From an uncultured Gemmatimonadales bacterium (GTDB lineage Bacteria; Gemmatimonadota; Gemmatimonadetes; Longimicrobiales; Gaopeijiaceae): a DNA stretch of 64,000 nucleotides. Location: positions 576,001 to 640,000 of the forward strand of contig CAWELD010000003.1 of the NCBI GenBank assembly GCA_963809895.1. The letters run 5' to 3'. A program made the position numbers. Shown in pieces: positions 39,632 to 45,600 of this stretch. Within the stretch, counting starts at the first letter, position 1; each line of letters opens with the position of its first letter.

Positions 39632-42600
39632 CCACCACGACCTTGCCGCGGAGGGTCTCGGAATCGATGCCAGTGCCGTCCAGCGTCGTGACTTCGAACG
39701 CAGGCGCGGTCCCGAGCGTGGGGCCGATTCCGGTGAGCGCCGAGATCTGCGGCCCCAGGCGATGAAGGACGAACAGGGCCAGCACCACCCAGAACGCCCG
39801 CTCGGTCCAGCGGGCGACGGGATGGGACCAGGCTCGTCGGAGTCGTTCCTTCCAGGGTGTCATGCGGGCCGTGGGGGCGAGGTCGGAGCGCGCGTTGCCG
39901 GCTCGCCCTCCCAACCCCGTGGACGGCGACACGGTTCCGGGCGAAGTTACCCTGCATGAACGCAGGCGTCCGGCTGGTCCAGTCCTATCTCTATCTGAAC
40001 GGCTACTTCACGGTGACCGAGCTTCCGGTCATCCGTGGGATGCGCGGCGGCGGGTACGAGGAGATCACGGATCTCGACGTGCTCGCCATCCGCTTTCCGC
40101 GGGCCGAGTACGTCATCGCTCGTGGCCGCCCCGGGCCCCACGACGACCTGCACATGGGCACCGACAAGGTGCTGGTGGACGAGGCGGGCATCGTGGACGT
40201 GCTCATCGCCGAGGTGAAGGAAGGCAAAGCCCGGGTGAACGACGCGCTCCGGCGGACCGATGCCCTGGACACGGCGCTCCGGCGAGTGGGATGCTGTCCC
40301 GATTCGCTCCTGGAGCACGCGGTGGGCGAGCTCCAGCAGAACGGCGTCGTGCGTCTGGATCAGAAGGAGGCGGGCATCCCTACGCGCATCCGCCTGCTGG
40401 CGTTCGGCGAGGGAGCGACGGGTGAGCGGCGCGGCTATCAGGTCGTGAGCCTTCGGCACGTCGCGCACTTCGTGGAACGCCATCTCGACCGGTATCACGA
40501 CGTCCTGCAGCCCGCCGACCTGGGCGATACGCCGCTGGGGTTCCTGCACCTGCTCCGCAAGCTTCGTTGACCCCCGCGCGGGGTCCCGTCACGGGATCCT
40601 GACGTCCGTGACGGGGTTTTGAGCCGGCGGACGATCCGAGCCGGCCCAGCAGCCAATCAGGAGAACGACACGCAAGTGAGCACGTGGCAACGCAGGAAGA
40701 CCGTGGAGGTCCGGGTCGGCAACGTGGCCGTGGGCGGCGACCATCCGGTGGTGGTCCAGTCCATGACCAACACCGACACGGCCGATCCGAGCTCCACGGC
40801 CGACCAGGTCGTGGATCTGGCCCGGGCGGGGAGCGAGCTGGTCCGCATCACCGTGAACACCGACGAGGCCGCGGCGGCGGTTCCGGAGATCGTCGCGCGG
40901 GTGCAGGACGCGGGCTTCGACGTCCCCATCATCGGTGACTTCCACTACAACGGGCACCTCCTGCTGACCCGGCATCCCTCCTGCGCCGAGGCCCTCGCCA
41001 AGTACCGGATCAATCCCGGCAACGTGGGCACCAAGCACCGGGACAAGAACTTCACCGACATCGTCCAGGTGGCCATCGACCACGGCAAGCCGGTGCGCAT
41101 CGGCGTGAACTGGGGATCGCTGGACCAGCGCCTCCTCACCGAGCTCATGGACGCCAACGCCGAGCGGAGCGAGCCCAAGGACGCCCGCGAGGTGCTGCTG
41201 GACGCCATGGTGGAGAGCGCGCTGCGCTCGGCGGCGCTGGCCGAGGAGGTGGGGCTCCCCCACGACGCCATCATCCTGTCGGCCAAGGTCTCGGGGGTGC
41301 CGGACCTCATCGACGTCTACCGCATGCTCGCGCCGCGCTCCGATTACCCGCTCCACCTTGGACTCACCGAAGCCGGCATGGGGGCCAAGGGCATCGTGGC
41401 CACCACGGCGGGTCTGGCGCCGCTCCTCATGGAAGGGATCGGCGACACCATCCGGGTCTCCCTGACTCCCGAGCCCGGCGGCGACCGCGCCCAGGAGGTC
41501 CGGGTGGCGCAGCAGATCCTCCAGTCCATGGGGATTCGGAGCTTCGAGCCCCAGGTGACCTCGTGCCCCGGCTGCGGCCGCACCACCTCCACCTTCTTCC
41601 AGGAGATGGCGCAGGACATCCAGGGCTACATCCGCGACATGATGCCCGAGTGGAGGGAGCGCTACCCCGGCGTGGAGGAGCTGGACGTGGCCGTCATGGG
41701 CTGCGTGGTGAACGGGCCCGGCGAGTCCAAGCACGCCAATCTTGGGATCAGCCTACCGGGGACCTTCGAGGAGCCCAAGGCGCCCGTGTACGTGGACGGC
41801 GAGCACTACACCACGCTCAAGGGCGAGGGATTGGTGGCCGAGTTCAAGGCCATCCTGGACGACTACGTGCGGACGCGTTACGGCGCGGAGGCGTCGCAGG
41901 AGGCACCCGCCTCGGCCTGAGGGCCTCAGTCGGCTCAGCGATCCTGGCCGTTGCCCGGGACCTGGGCTCGCGCCCGCCGTACGTAGTCGGTCACGTGCTC
42001 GCCGTAGCGTTCCACCAACGGCTTCCGGTAGTCATCCCCCCGGATCACCCCGCGGCAGCCGGCTGAGCCGCACGAGCACTCGAAGTCGGGCATCTGCTCG
42101 TTGTACATGGTGGCGTAGTCCAGGGTGATCTCCTCGCCCCGCGCCAGGGGCCGGCGGGCTACCACGTCGAGGCCCTCGATCCACGCCGAAGGGTCGCAGG
42201 AGTGGTTCACCGGCATCCATTCCATGGGATTCCGGCTCCAGGTGACCCAGACCTCGTCGGTGAGGGGCCAGGCGTAGCGGCGGAACCAGTCCAGTTCGCG
42301 CTCGCCCCAGCTCGCCTCCACGTGAGCCCGCGACACCAGCGTGTGCTCGCCCTCCTCGAAGCGAATCAGGACGTCGCCGGGCCGCACGTCACGGGTGGCG
42401 AACAGGCCGTAATCGCCACCGGGGCGGGGCAGGACCTCCCAGCCGGTGCGGCGGAGCTCCTGGCGCCGCAGCGCCGCAGCGACGATCTGCCGGGTGAAGC
42501 CTGGGTGCCCGGCCGGATCGTGCTGGAGGATGAGGTCGGCGCTCCCGGGGTCTTCGAGGGGATAATAGAGGCCGCAATTGGGATTGATCTCGAGCATGAA

Positions 42601-45600
42601 GGTGCGGCCATCGCGGTCCACGCGGAGGTCGCAGCGGCCGTAGCCCGCGCCGCCCAGGCCCTGGAAGAAGCGCGCGGATTCGGTCCGCAGGCGCGCGTCC
42701 AGCTCCGGGTCCTGCACGGGGCTCGCGTGCAGCCCGTGATAGTCCTCCCACTTGAGATCCCAGTGCTTGAAGGTCTCGCCCTCGGGGAAGCGGTAGCGGA
42801 TGGGCACGTAGGTGGTGGGGTTGTCCGGGTCCTCGGGGTCTTCCGCCACCAGCACCGTGCACTCCATGCCCTCGATGAATTCCTCCACCAGCGCGCCGCC
42901 GTAGCGGCTCATCATGGTGCGGGCTTGCTGGCCGAGTGTCTCGGCCGTCTCCACCCGGGAGGCCCGGGTCAGCCCCAGGCTCGCGTAGCTGCTCGGATGC
43001 TTGACGATGAGGGGAAAACGGAGGGTGTCCAGCGCCCGCTCCAGGTCGCGCTCGTCGCGGGCGATGACGTACCCAGGGGTGCCGATGTCCCAGGCGTGGC
43101 ACACGCGCTTCATGGCCTCACGCGACGGCTCGAAGAAGCCCGAGTCCGCGCCGGTGAACGCCTGTCCCAGGCTCTCCAGCGTCTGCACGACCTCGATCCC
43201 GGGCCCGGGCTCGTCCCAGGCGGCGTCGCACAGGTTGAAGAAGACGTCGTATCCGTCGCCGGCGAGCTTGACCACCCGGGGCACCGCGTGCTCCCCGTCG
43301 AGGACGCCCAGCGTCCAGTCGGCATCGGGTAGGTGTGGACGGGGATCGCAGGGCCAGTCGCCGTCCGGAAGCGGCAGCGACGACAGGTCCTGATCGGTGA
43401 GGAGACAGATGCGCATGCGCGTGGCGTCAGTCGGCGTCCGGGAGGGGCTCACCGCTGGCCCCCGCCGTGCCCGGCCGCGTATCCGGCGGTGGTCCAGCGT
43501 CGGCCCGGCGCAGGAACTCCAGCAGGGCGAGGATCCGCGGATGATCGAGCTGTCGGTTGGCCATGGGCACCTGATACTGCGCGAGCAACGCCGCCGCAAC
43601 GGTGTCGGCCACCAGCATGGAGTCGGGATTCCGGATCATGGCGGCGATCCAGGGAACGGGCCGCCGGCGCGTGACACCGGCCAGGTCGGGGCCGATGATC
43701 GCGCCCTCGCCCAGGTGATGGCACGCCGAGCAGTTCCTGCGGAAATACCAGGCGCCGGCGTCGGCCAGCGTTTGATCGATGGGGGCGCCCGGACCAGGGA
43801 GGGGCGCACTGGCGAGGGCGGGATCCAGGGTGGGCCCGCGCTCGCAGCCCGTCAGCGCCAACGCGAGGGCGGCGAACGACGAGAACCAGGCCGACACCCG
43901 TGGTCGGCGATGGGTCGGACGAATCATGCGATAGGATAGCAGACACGGGCCCGATGGGAACCCCGGCTCCCGCAGCATCGTCACCTTCGTCCGATTCGCG
44001 CATTGCCCCATCGGCGATCCTCCGCATAAAATGCGCGAGGCCCCTCCTGCGTATGGACTATCGTAGACAACGGACACGTCGGAGGCGCCGGGAGACGCGA
44101 AAGGCAACGGTCGGGTGGTGGGGTGACGTCTCACCGTTCGATGGATTCCTTCCGGACCCTGCGCCCGCCTGTCCAGCCACTCAGCCGCGAGCCTGCCGAT
44201 CCATGGCCTTTTCTTCTCGAACGCTCAGCATCACCACCGTCGTGGTCATCCTCGGCGCCGTGGGCGCCGGCGTCTGGTGGCGTCTCCGCCCCGAAGATGA
44301 CGCCGCAGGCGAGGCCCAGGCCTCCGAAGCCGATACCTCCGCCGTGCAGGTGGCGTCCGCGGGAACTCAGTTCTCCACCGATCTGCCCCAGCCCGTGACC
44401 GGCGCCGCCGTGGTGCGGGACACCCTGTGGATCACCGTGAACGCCGCGGGCAAGGCGGCCGCGTTCCGCCGAACCGCCGTGGCCGCGCAGGTGGAAGGGG
44501 TCATTCAGGAGGTGCCCGTGCAGGAGAACGGCCGCGTGGCCGAAGGTGATCTCCTCGTGCAGATCGACACGGCCGAGCTCGCGCTGAGCGTCGCCCAGGC
44601 CCGGGCGGAGCTTCTCAAGGCCCAGGCCGACTTCCAGACGCAGACGCTCTTCGACGACGAGATCACCGATCCGGCGGTCAAGCAGCGGCGCGAGCAGGCC
44701 GCCCGCGTGAGCAGTGGGCTCTCGGCGGCCGAGGTGGCGCTCCGCCAGCAGGAGATGCGCCTGGAACGGGCGTCGGTGGAGGCGCCCTTCGAGGGTCGCA
44801 TCGCCGACGTCAAGGTCGTGCAGGGACAGCACGTCACCGCCGGCACCGAGCTCCTGACCGTGGTGGATCTGGACCCGATCAAGGTCGAGGTGTCGGTGCT
44901 GGAGGCCGAGCTGGGTTACCTGACCGAGGGCCGCCGGGCCACCGTGACCTTCGCCGCCTTCCCGGGCGAGGCCTTCAGCGGGCGCATCGAGACCATCAAC
45001 CCGGTGGTGGATCCCGACCAGCGCACGGGGCGCGTGACGGTGCTGCTGCCCAACCACGACGGCCGTATCAAGCCGGGCATGTACGCCGACGTGTCGCTGG
45101 ACGCCCAGAGCTATCCGGACCGGCTGCTGGTCCCGCGTTCGGCGATCCTGGAGCGGGGCGACGAGAACCGCACCATGCTCTTCGTCTTCGAGGGCGACGG
45201 CGACACGGGGCTGGCCAAGTGGCGCTACGTGACCACCGGCAAGGAGAACGACAGCCTGGTGGAGATCGTGCCCAGCGACGAGGGCACCGTGGAGCCCGGC
45301 GAGATCGTGCTGGTGGACGGCCACCACTACCTGGCCCACGACACCAAGATCCGTCTCGTGGACAACCCGGCGGTGGCGGGCGGGAGGCCCAGCCGATGAA
45401 CGGCCGGCGGCGGGTGGCTTCGGTGATGGGGATGGCCCTTCTGGGGCTGGCGGCGGGCGGGCCCCTCGGCGCCCAGGAGTCCACGGACACGGTCGCCCTC
45501 AGCCTGGACGACGCGATCCGCATCGCCGAGGGGGCCAACCCTACGTTTCGGCAGGCGGCCAACCAGCTCGACCTGAACGGATCCGCAGGCCCGGGCGACC

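Follow-up and report, generated by a model that had tools for sequence, protein, structure and literature searches.

Related ATP-grasp and SET enzymes

Ddl ligases, among them P. aeruginosa DdlB (PDB 8evy/8evz), and the Van D-Ala-D-Lac and D-Ala-D-Ser ligases have a three-domain ATP-grasp fold, and solved Ddl-type enzymes enclose small substrates. A SET domain followed by a post-SET zinc cluster is found in the histone methyltransferases KMT2 (MLL), SET2/SETD2, NSD and ASH1L. In the NAGGN osmolyte pathway, the bifunctional Ngg unites a GNAT domain with an ATP-grasp dipeptide synthetase. BurB of Burkholderia thailandensis (PDB 9l4t/9l4v) is a SET-domain methionine S-methyltransferase and shows that a SET/post-SET unit is able to act on a free amino acid (PMC12542666); it is a stand-alone protein of 172 aa for which no ligase partner is described. 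TTLL12 is described as carrying a SET-like and a tubulin-tyrosine-ligase-like domain, and hence the superfamily pair considered here, in one polypeptide (PMC3520985). No paper on an ATP-grasp–SET fusion was found in the literature searched, which did not cover the likeliest place, Iyer et al. 2009 (PMC3268129).

Gene and domain architecture

The window, a 64,000-nt stretch of contig CAWELD010000003.1 from an uncultured Gemmatimonadales bacterium, encodes a protein that joins a Ddl-like ATP-grasp ligase to a SET domain (Table 1). The ORF listing of the window gives a 554-aa minus-strand frame at 41935..43599 that opens with TTG, and reading from the ATG at 43416 yields 493 aa and a stop; we place the start there because homologues share the N-terminus MRICLL of the fusion protein. 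The survey's finding that both domains lie in one 493-aa protein was confirmed by ORF, translation and Pfam. Among 8000 proteins scored, 2336 were homologous at E≤0.001, and of the best 120 (62–98% identity) 116 carry both PF00856 and PF07478 and four carry PF07478 only, which rules out an assembly or frameshift artefact. The fused architecture was found again in hundreds of metagenomic proteins, and the AlphaFold2 model of the full-length protein has a pLDDT of 92.6 and a pTM of 0.88. The fusion is a genuine single gene for an amide-forming ligase and a methyltransferase.

Table 1. Features of the fusion gene, in window coordinates
Feature	Position	Strand	Extent or basis
ATP-grasp ligase–SET methyltransferase fusion gene (P0001)	41935..43416	minus	493 codons and stop
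Ddl-like ATP-grasp ligase domain, residues 1–322	42451..43416	minus	Pfam, DdlB alignment, Foldseek
SET and post-SET Cys cluster, residues 326–457	42046..42441	minus	NHSC 404–407, Y434, C447-x-C449-x4-C454
Family-specific C-terminal tail, residues 458–493	41938..42045	minus	alignment consensus and models

The ligase half

Residues 125–283 match PF07478 (Dala_Dala_lig_C; E 2.1e-14, 54 bits against a cut-off of 24), and the N-domain family PF01820 was not matched by Pfam. Ddl structures are nearest by sequence and are the best Foldseek matches (8evz, E 4.5e-19, TMt 0.75; range for the shared fold, 0.75–0.78), the alignment with P. aeruginosa DdlB spans residues 80–283, and residues 303–322 form the C-terminal helix of the domain. 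The motifs EEFIEG (178–183) and LEINPNCG (275–282) are present, and the ATP- and Mg-binding residues of Ddl align with K139, E178/E179, E185, K222, R261, D263, E276 and N278. In an alignment of 40 sequences reaching as low as 27% identity, K139, E178, G183 and E185 are invariant, and E179, K222, R261, D263 and N278 are at least 90% conserved. Conservation extends to the loop aligned to the Ddl lid (F210, F216, K222, W223), in which K222 and W223 stand against the K-Y of DdlB. The fusion ligase probably employs the acyl-phosphate chemistry of Ddl.

The pocket that holds D-Ala1 in Ddl is altered: by the DdlB alignment, A145 stands where DdlB has the leading Ser of its Gly-Ser-Ser loop, W223 takes the place of the lid Tyr, and in the remodelled N-terminus the GG-S-E-E-V-S helix of Ddl has no counterpart. 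The site assignment follows E. coli Ddl residue numbering. The family adds an invariant D57/N61/C63/D64 cluster, R265 and D294, which are extra relative to Ddl. Because the D-Ala1 site is remodelled, the substrate of the ligase would be something other than D-alanine. The protein was also considered as the cell's housekeeping Ddl and rejected: the Ddl and Van NCBIfam models score it at 56–62 bits against curated cut-offs of 243–246, and a true Ddl lies at another site in the genome (276 bits, above the cut-off).

Since no characterised enzymes stand closer than Ddl and the Van ligases, a role in the cell wall has to be weighed, in which the ligase would make an alternative D-Ala-D-X or similar dipeptide for peptidoglycan precursors and the SET domain would modify the dipeptide or a wall-building protein. 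At two Anaerolineae loci an orthologue lacking SET lies beside SIS-domain genes, and one of them (L080) also has a GH3 hydrolase, an ABC permease and a DUF2817 gene nearby, neighbours that we take to resemble amino-sugar or murein recycling genes. Such a role nevertheless appears improbable given the altered D-Ala1 residues, the missing helix and scores far under every Ddl/Van cut-off; moreover, no mur, van or ddp genes adjoin the fused genes at the loci compared, and eukaryote records contain the family as well.

The SET half and C-terminal tail

PF00856 matches residues 336–434 (E 8.7e-10, 39.4 bits against a cut-off of 22.4), and the half contains VNHSCDPS (403–410), EEITLDY (428–434) and CSCGSAGC (447–454). 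In the 40-sequence alignment H405, C447, C449 and C454 are invariant and C407 and Y434 at least 90% conserved. The survey had described the catalytic motifs of both halves as intact, and this holds: all motifs it quoted were found, and key residues are conserved down to 27% identity.

The SET domain is modelled with a pLDDT of 90.2. BurB is its best PDB sequence match (E 4.2e-7, residues 404–460), and KMT2A is matched at E 1.5e-6. Structural comparison by VIA places BurB (9l4t) first at Z 10.7, with an rmsd of 3.6 over 128 residues, Set2 at 10.3 and MLL1 at 9.8, while Foldseek returns MLL4 at 6e-9 and BurB at 5e-8; across the histone methyltransferases the values run from 1.5e-6 to 1e-3 by sequence, from 6e-9 to 1e-7 by Foldseek and from Z 9 to 10 by VIA. 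BurB is thus the closest solved SET protein by sequence and structurally level with the histone methyltransferases KMT2, SET2, NSD and ASH1L. BurB and the SET half have HSC...DYA...FECxCGxxxCRxxIxG in common, and in both an aliphatic residue stands two positions before the catalytic Tyr (L432 in the fusion protein and Met in BurB). In BurB, substrate contacts are made through main-chain atoms (PMC12542666), so pocket likeness to the SET half is not readable from sequence.

Unlike the histone methyltransferases, the bacterial, ligase-fused SET half has neither AWS/pre-SET nor chromatin-reader domains, and it carries a family-specific SET-I insert, YAWPLTDEVWV (residues 381–391), and the C-terminal tail. 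The tail has the 40-sequence consensus IRGxDYLxxxxxRYGxHVSDYVRxxR and is modelled as two short helices (466–471 and 477–485) ending in five disordered residues (pLDDT <50 for 489–493).

Distribution and domain shuffling

The survey had read the fusion as phylum-wide, but the fused form occurs in only 34 of 401 sampled phylum genomes: close orthologues (57–67% identity) in 12, the window's own included, and distant fused homologues (36–40% identity) in a further 22. Its count of seven among 19 was reproduced for the fusion itself in the other genomes of the genus, and the fusion is absent from five genus genomes that are each at least 90% complete. The 921 of 2019 genomes that it gave for SET reflect mostly separate, small stand-alone SET genes and not the fusion; in our sample any SET occurs in 141 of 401 phylum genomes, including 93 of the 94 in one family. 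Nor is the fusion confined to Gemmatimonadota. Fused forms span at least six bacterial phyla, the five further ones being Chloroflexota, Actinomycetota, Planctomycetota, Cyanobacteria and Acidobacteriota, and appear in some eukaryote records.

Ligase orthologues also occur alone. At 23 of 37 loci (L051–L087) the orthologue (36–65% identity) is SET-less, with no SET within up to 10 kb on each side, and such proteins stop directly after the ligase C-terminal helix. In one Gemmatimonadota genome a 61%-identical ligase ends just past the ligase domain and the sole SET lies on another contig. In the ligase tree a SET-less clade (support 99) is nested inside the fused clade that contains the window protein. 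Given this patchy distribution and the ligase orthologues that work without SET, the fusion is best regarded as accessory; the family is widespread yet patchy and looks like an optional extra, no core gene of the phylum, which counters the housekeeping role that the survey had proposed.

Within the ligase tree, well-supported branches show at least 12 changes in SET presence, as might be expected if the halves were independent or regulatory, with SET methylating either its own ligase half or some unrelated target, or with one half serving as a catalytically idle scaffold. TTLL12 offers a parallel, since its domains reportedly showed no activity in assays of histone methylation and tubulin tyrosination (PMC3520985), whereas the fusion keeps both centres conserved. 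With catalytic residues of both halves kept down to 27% identity, we think this very improbable. The family also includes ATP-grasp-SET-SET, SET-ATP-grasp, ATP-grasp-SET-ATP-grasp and ATP-grasp-ATP-grasp proteins, and ATP-grasp and SET occur as adjacent genes (L055, L057, L076); pairing in several orders and copy numbers, and in separate genes, argues for a shared pathway of both halves.

Gene neighbourhood and proposed function

No conserved neighbour of the fusion gene or its orthologues was found in 57 loci, in agreement with the survey, and no transporter, regulator or additional biosynthetic gene travels with the fusion gene at the loci compared. In the window a cytochrome c gene lies 10 nt upstream; it was seen at 0 of 20 other loci.

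We favour, with about even confidence, an accessory enzyme that both ligates and methylates, and whose product is a methylated small metabolite of amide or peptide type. It would be a self-contained, two-step enzyme, for which we infer small substrates. BurB, the best sequence match and the top VIA match of the SET half, sets a precedent for a SET domain acting on a free amino acid, and the accessory distribution, the Ddl-type ligase half and the true Ddl elsewhere in the genome also fit. The Ddl-type ATP-grasp would first activate a carboxylate with ATP to an acyl-phosphate, which an amine would convert into an amide or dipeptide-like product. The rigidly attached SET/post-SET unit would then transfer a methyl group from S-adenosylmethionine to a nitrogen (or sulphur), either in this product or in one of the components joined, so that a methylated metabolite, perhaps of betaine type, would result. 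If common metabolites, ATP and SAM are all that the enzyme requires, the lack of a conserved partner at the loci compared is to be expected; methylation looks like optional tailoring, since close ligase orthologues occur without SET. To judge from sequence alignment with Ddl, the ligase may have a closed pocket, which would likewise argue for a small substrate. Ngg, likened by description, follows a similar logic, in that an ATP-grasp dipeptide ligase and a tailoring transferase build a small solute out of common amino acids, although its ATP-grasp belongs to another subfamily and its tailoring is by acetyltransferase instead of SET.

Several points speak against small substrates. The BurB sequence match spans just 57 residues; apart from BurB, the one exception seen here, a SET domain that carries a post-SET zinc cluster is a protein lysine methyltransferase; and missing linked genes are also typical of stand-alone protein modifiers such as RimK and PrmA. 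SET pairs with other ATP-grasp families too, as in TTLL12 of eukaryotes, where the pairing has been read as protein modification; TTLL12 has a TTL-type ligase and the reverse domain order, whereas the ATP-grasp here is Ddl-type.

The survey had proposed a two-headed protein modifier with a phylum-wide, housekeeping role, whose single abundant target it guessed to be a ribosomal or other translation protein. The real fusion and both conserved centres stand in its favour, and the phylum-wide and housekeeping parts find no support; the ribosomal or translational target is a guess. In a non-housekeeping form, the ligase would add an amino acid to a target protein carboxylate or peptide, and SET would methylate a lysine in that target, which might be the newly added residue itself. 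Its canonical SET/post-SET, whose closest solved kin besides BurB are protein lysine methyltransferases, fits this reading, as do the rigid two-domain model, suited to two sites on one substrate, and the independent existence of ATP-grasp and SET pairings. The ligase, however, is not of RimK, TTL or LysX type (Pfam matched no TTL family in the protein, and the RimK model scores it only at E 0.013), it occurs without SET, none of the 57 loci has a linked gene that could be a target, the cytochrome c gene upstream is not retained at the 20 other loci, and the patchy distribution speaks against a universal abundant target. We regard this modifier as possible but rather unlikely.

A second ATP-grasp gene adjoins 21 of the 22 distant fused genes of the phylum; such paired ligases could serve a protein modifier as initiator and elongator. 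Under the small-metabolite reading, the same pairs, the varied architectures and a cyanobacterial array (L076) with ATP-grasp-SET, SET, a FemAB-like gene and ATP-grasp in consecutive order suggest modules that recombine like biosynthetic parts.

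Domain architecture and conservation of the fusion protein

Homologues share an MRICLL N-terminus in a 40-sequence alignment, and we therefore place the start of the fusion gene at the ATG at 43416, from which P0001, a product of 493 residues plus stop, is translated (table below). Pfam assigned Dala_Dala_lig_C (PF07478) to residues 125–283 (E 2.1e-14, above the gathering score) and SET (PF00856) to residues 336–434 (E 8.7e-10; 39.4 bits against a gathering cut-off of 22.4), and every motif quoted in the survey was located in the sequence. That the ATP-grasp ligase and the SET domain are genuinely fused was confirmed among homologues, which number at least 2336 at E≤0.001 among 8000 proteins scored from a collection of 5.8 billion: both Pfam families are present in 116 of the 120 best (62–98% identity).

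In the alignment, whose 40 sequences reach down to 27% identity, K139, E178, G183, E185, H405, C447, C449 and C454 are invariant, conservation reaches at least 90% at E179, K222, R261, D263, N278, C407 and Y434, and position 276 is consistently E or D. Since residues of both centres are retained down to 27% identity, both catalytic centres of P0001 are under selection. The full-length AlphaFold2 model, computed from this alignment, is compact and confident (pLDDT 92.6, pTM 0.88), and the fusion it predicts is rigid.

Both domains of the family are already named in public annotation. Each half represents a very well-studied enzyme class, yet we found no description of the fusion, nor of a member with a known substrate. 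A literature search, whose reach did not extend to Iyer et al. (2009), where an earlier description is most to be expected, returned no paper describing an ATP-grasp–SET fusion, and a review of bacterial SET proteins (PMC3980110) contains no ‘ligase’ or ‘architecture’ passage.

The fusion gene, its neighbours in the window and the modelled parts of its product
Feature	Position	Strand	Remarks
purH			first of the neighbours
Unknown ORF			between purH and the TlpA/ResA-like gene
TlpA/ResA-like thiol-disulfide oxidoreductase	39291-39932	-	86.7 bits with NF002854 (below cut-off); flanked by the unknown ORF and ispG
ispG			convergent with the fusion gene; 14 bp separates the stops
Fusion-gene ORF	41935..43599	-	encodes P0001
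c-type cytochrome gene	43427-44134	-	Pfam Cytochrom_C at residues 125-209; one CxxCH
RND efflux operon HlyD-TolC-AcrB	43900-52500	+	divergent from the fusion gene
HlyD/CusB-type membrane fusion protein		+	in the efflux operon
TolC-like outer membrane factor	45907-46800	+
AcrB-type pump	46802-50125	+
Further ORF	from 50135	+	after the AcrB-type pump
P0001, three-part ATP-grasp unit	residues 1-322		closes with long helix 303-322 (AlphaFold2 model)
P0001, SET domain	from residue 326		begins ~3 residues past helix 303-322; post-SET cysteines next (AlphaFold2 model)
P0001, C-terminal tail	after the post-SET cysteines		family-specific; two short helices (AlphaFold2 model)

The ligase half

Foldseek matched the whole P0001 model to D-alanine-D-alanine ligases (Ddl; 8evz, E 4.5e-19, TMt 0.75). 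The fold, together with the Lys, the Glu-Glu hinge and the Arg-x-Asp...Glu-x-Asn residues, places the protein in the ATP-grasp superfamily, and in a HMMER alignment with Pseudomonas aeruginosa DdlB, R261-x-D263 and E276-x-N278 line up with the metal and phosphate residues. The same alignment reveals differences from DdlB, in that A145 takes the place of the first Ser in the Gly-Ser-Ser loop and K222-W223 that of the lid Lys-Tyr, the lid Tyr being replaced by Trp. The N-terminal GG-S-E-E helix of Ddl has no counterpart in strand-loop 1–32 of P0001, as judged from alignment and model. This helix holds D-Ala1 in Ddl, whose D-Ala1-binding triad is Glu15/Ser150/Tyr216 in E. coli numbering. In the 40-sequence alignment, the ATP-grasp–SET family is distinguished by an acidic/Cys cluster (D57-N61-L62-C63-D64) as well as by R265 and D294. 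Collectively, the sequence comparisons show a ligase half that is Ddl-type and active-looking, with a changed substrate site.

Assignment of P0001 as a Ddl proper was rejected (TIGR01205, 56 bits against a cut-off of 245.65; NF002378, 62.2 against 243); its scores with all Ddl/Van models of NCBIfam range from 12 to 62 bits, the cut-offs from 243 to 775, and the Ddl N-terminal domain PF01820 gave no match at E≤0.1. The true Ddl of the window's genome is encoded at G000:C3:2119212-2120195 (276.3 bits, above cut-off). Membership of the RimK family of protein C-terminal glutamate ligases was likewise discarded (TIGR00768, 14.9 bits against 143.4), as was a tubulin tyrosine ligase-like identity (PF03133): Pfam matches at E≤0.1 include no TTL family, those of ATP-grasp type being Ddl, PurK-type ATP-grasp and GARS_A.

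The SET half

Besides the PF00856 match above cut-off, P0001 has the NHSC motif, the catalytic Tyr (Y434) and the SET fold, the half modelled by itself reaching pLDDT 90.2. The three invariant cysteines at 447, 449 and 454 form the post-SET C-x-C-x4-C cluster, and C407 of NHSC is nearly invariant. On these sequence features, the SET/post-SET half looks like an active methyltransferase.

By sequence, the closest solved relative of this half is BurB of Burkholderia thailandensis (E 4.2e-7 over residues 404–460, 57 residues only), a SET enzyme whose reaction is the S-methylation of free methionine (PMC12542666); KMT2A, ASH1L and SETD2 follow. Against SET structures the half gives Z 8–10.7, and the comparison amounts to a tie between BurB (10.7), Set2 (10.3), COMPASS Set1 (9.9) and MLL1 (9.8), with Foldseek placing MLL4, NSD2 and BurB together. 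Protein lysine methyltransferases and a small-molecule enzyme are thus its structural neighbours alike, at most 1 Z unit apart.

With few exceptions, the SET/post-SET enzymes known to date methylate lysines of proteins, and the pairing of ATP-grasp with SET also occurs elsewhere, in the eukaryotic protein TTLL12; both facts speak for P0001 as a protein-modifying enzyme, which we consider rather unlikely. If true, it would represent a new two-step protein mark. One elaborate form of it is a composite mark made by a single polypeptide, in which the Ddl-like half would add an amino acid (lysine, say, or a different residue bearing an amine) to a carboxylate on a protein or peptide target and the SET half would methylate the added residue. 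Such a ligate-then-methylate mark, undescribed in any organism, would be common to at least six bacterial phyla as well as to certain protists and algae, making the family a working counterpart of the enigmatic TTLL12; we regard this as slightly less likely still.

Distribution within Gemmatimonadota

The phylum was sampled with 401 evenly drawn genomes, the window's own included. A full-length orthologue (57–67% identity) is present in 12, a homologue of 36–40% identity that is full-length or almost so in 22 more, and the ligase part only, at 61% identity, in one (G016); the remaining ~215 matches (E 1e-11 to 1e-21) cover the ATP-grasp part only and represent Ddl and other paralogues. Within the genus, 7 of the 19 other genomes carry the gene (58–68% identity), which is absent from five with completeness of 90% or more and contamination of no more than 5%. 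The fusion, described in the survey as phylum-wide and housekeeping, is accordingly neither. The large SET-family count given there mostly reflects other genes, small stand-alone SET proteins: any SET domain occurs in 141 of the 401 genomes, and in one phylum family (f5) such small proteins, often several per genome, are encoded by 93 of the 94 genomes sampled. A few unpublished genomes (G057, G157, G182) count towards the fusion and any-SET tallies, and no named carrier is among them.

The fusion gene is an accessory gene that moves between phyla and no conserved housekeeping trait of Gemmatimonadota, a correction of the survey that matters; the claims ‘phylum-wide’, ‘housekeeping’ and ‘ribosomal target’ should best be dropped. 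A conserved role of SET in bacteria would be better sought in the small stand-alone SET genes of family f5 than in the fusion. Apart from the fusion gene, the window's genome has a second gene with SET, which stands alone (G000:C3:2028922-2029212, open frame of 161 aa).

Range, architectures and loss of the SET domain

A search of 1.84 billion representatives returned 298 proteins at E≤1e-30. Pfam scans of 25 of them revealed ATP-grasp–SET, ATP-grasp–SET–SET (631–674 aa), SET–ATP-grasp (P0198), ATP-grasp–SET–ATP-grasp (P0227) and ATP-grasp–ATP-grasp (P0152) arrangements as well as stand-alone ligases of ~325 aa. The eukaryote-labelled members are P0133 of Mesostigma viride and P0239, a EukProt protein of 6220 aa; the P0123 cluster includes a 501-aa member that derives from a transcriptome of Vermamoeba and may be a contaminant. 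The ESM Atlas has fused clusters in which the commonest phylum is Acidobacteriota, Bacteroidota or Euglenozoa.

Among species-representative genomes, the fused gene was found in Gemmatimonadota, Chloroflexota (Caldilineales, Anaerolineales), Actinomycetota (a MAG of the Solirubrobacteraceae and a contig of 2.7 kb in a Mycobacterium bin), Planctomycetota and the cyanobacterium Brasilonema, and in frameshifted form in a Bryobacterales MAG. It is intact at 12 of the 37 loci of this wider set (L051–L087), while 23 have a ligase orthologue (36–65% identity) with no SET within up to 10 kb on either side.

A FastTree phylogeny of the ligase domain was built from 156 rows, comprising 85 with SET, 63 without and 8 lower-scoring ones as outgroup, one of which was placed inside the family; rows were excluded if they covered fewer than 270 model positions or had a domain E greater than 1e-20, as were four exact duplicates and all but 8 of the 44 lower-scoring rows. 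The tree needs 27–28 changes of SET state, at least 12 of them forced by well-supported branches, a count that is soft because some SET-less metagenome rows may be fragments. P0001 and 20 other fused rows share a 26-row clade (support 99) with nested complete SET-less ligases, which form a clade of their own (support 99) from a Casimicrobiaceae, a Fibrobacteraceae and a Planctomycetes member and the gemmatimonadote G016, together with the representative protein P0137. The G016 gene (L042:7515-8975), 61% identical to P0001, ends just past the last ligase helix, and the sole SET of that genome sits on a different contig; it is a natural SET-less form. Its clustering with genes from Proteobacteria, Fibrobacterota and Planctomycetota that likewise lack SET suggests transfer between phyla. 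This nested clade and the G016 gene indicate that the SET domain has been lost, that the ligase functions on its own and that the gene has moved from phylum to phylum.

Proposed activity

Our preferred reading, to which we give about an even chance, is that P0001 is a ligate-and-methylate enzyme for a small metabolite: the ligase half would join small substrates into an amide or dipeptide-like product, and the SET half would methylate. Ddl-type enzymes enclose small substrates, the modules shuffle in the manner of biosynthetic parts, BurB shows that such a SET domain can accept a free amino acid, and an enzyme acting on common metabolites needs no neighbours, no linked target being seen; each of these points favours a small metabolite. 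A cell-wall variant and a protein with independent or regulatory halves are minor alternatives. If P0001 does act on a small molecule, it would provide a second, far more widespread metabolite-acting SET domain after BurB and would point to a hitherto undescribed family of methylated amides or dipeptides, which may be compatible solutes, in bacteria of soils and sediments and in certain protists. The family is tractable, being a single soluble protein with common cofactors, and its natural SET-less and double-SET variants are built-in controls.

Genomic context

As the survey had reported, the fusion gene has no conserved neighbour: none of its neighbours in the window was seen again at any other locus analysed, save the efflux genes, which a single locus from the genus (L039) shares. 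When 20 phylum loci with 8 kb per side were clustered by BLASTP, only the tandem ATP-grasp gene of the distant group recurred; among the phylum's 22 distant fused genes, 21 have this second, paralogous gene beside them, and it is the only recurrent partner. In other phyla (37 loci clustered; 105 flanking ORFs from 18 loci scanned with Pfam), recurrences were generic only, comprising an ABC ATPase, two-component systems and synteny inside one Chloroflexota group. An additional SET gene adjoins the fusion at loci L055 and L057.

The cytochrome c gene of the window shares the strand of the fusion gene and ends 10 nt before its ATG, which makes co-transcription possible; in yeast, Ctm1 is a SET enzyme for cytochrome c. 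Considered as a possible target, cytochrome c was rejected as a conserved partner, its gene occurring at none of 20 related loci (BLASTP, all ORFs) and no linked CxxCH ORF recurring. A defence system was rejected as well, PADLOC giving no match for P0001 or five neighbouring ORFs. Plasmids yielded no full-length match to P0001 and two SET-only matches, and phages none.

The richest context seen for the family is that of a Brasilonema MAG (L076:9334-13702), where ATP-grasp–SET, SET, FemAB-like/GNAT and second Ddl-like ATP-grasp genes form a row, possibly a small cluster for building peptides. Two Anaerolineae MAGs (L077:8105-12733, L080:5482-12709) each have two SET-less ligase paralogues per locus, one after a double-SIS-domain gene and the other after one encoding ankyrin repeats; close by at L080 are genes for a GH3 hydrolase, a DUF2817 peptidase-like protein and a DcuC carrier.

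GC content around the fusion gene (0.69–0.71) equals that of its flanks, and there is thus no island signal. At 37000-39500, GC content is lower (0.63–0.66, compared with ~0.70 around it), and the long minus-strand ORFs of this stretch, at 37521-39221 (566 aa) and 37624-39957 (777 aa), gave no Pfam, NCBIfam or PADLOC match.
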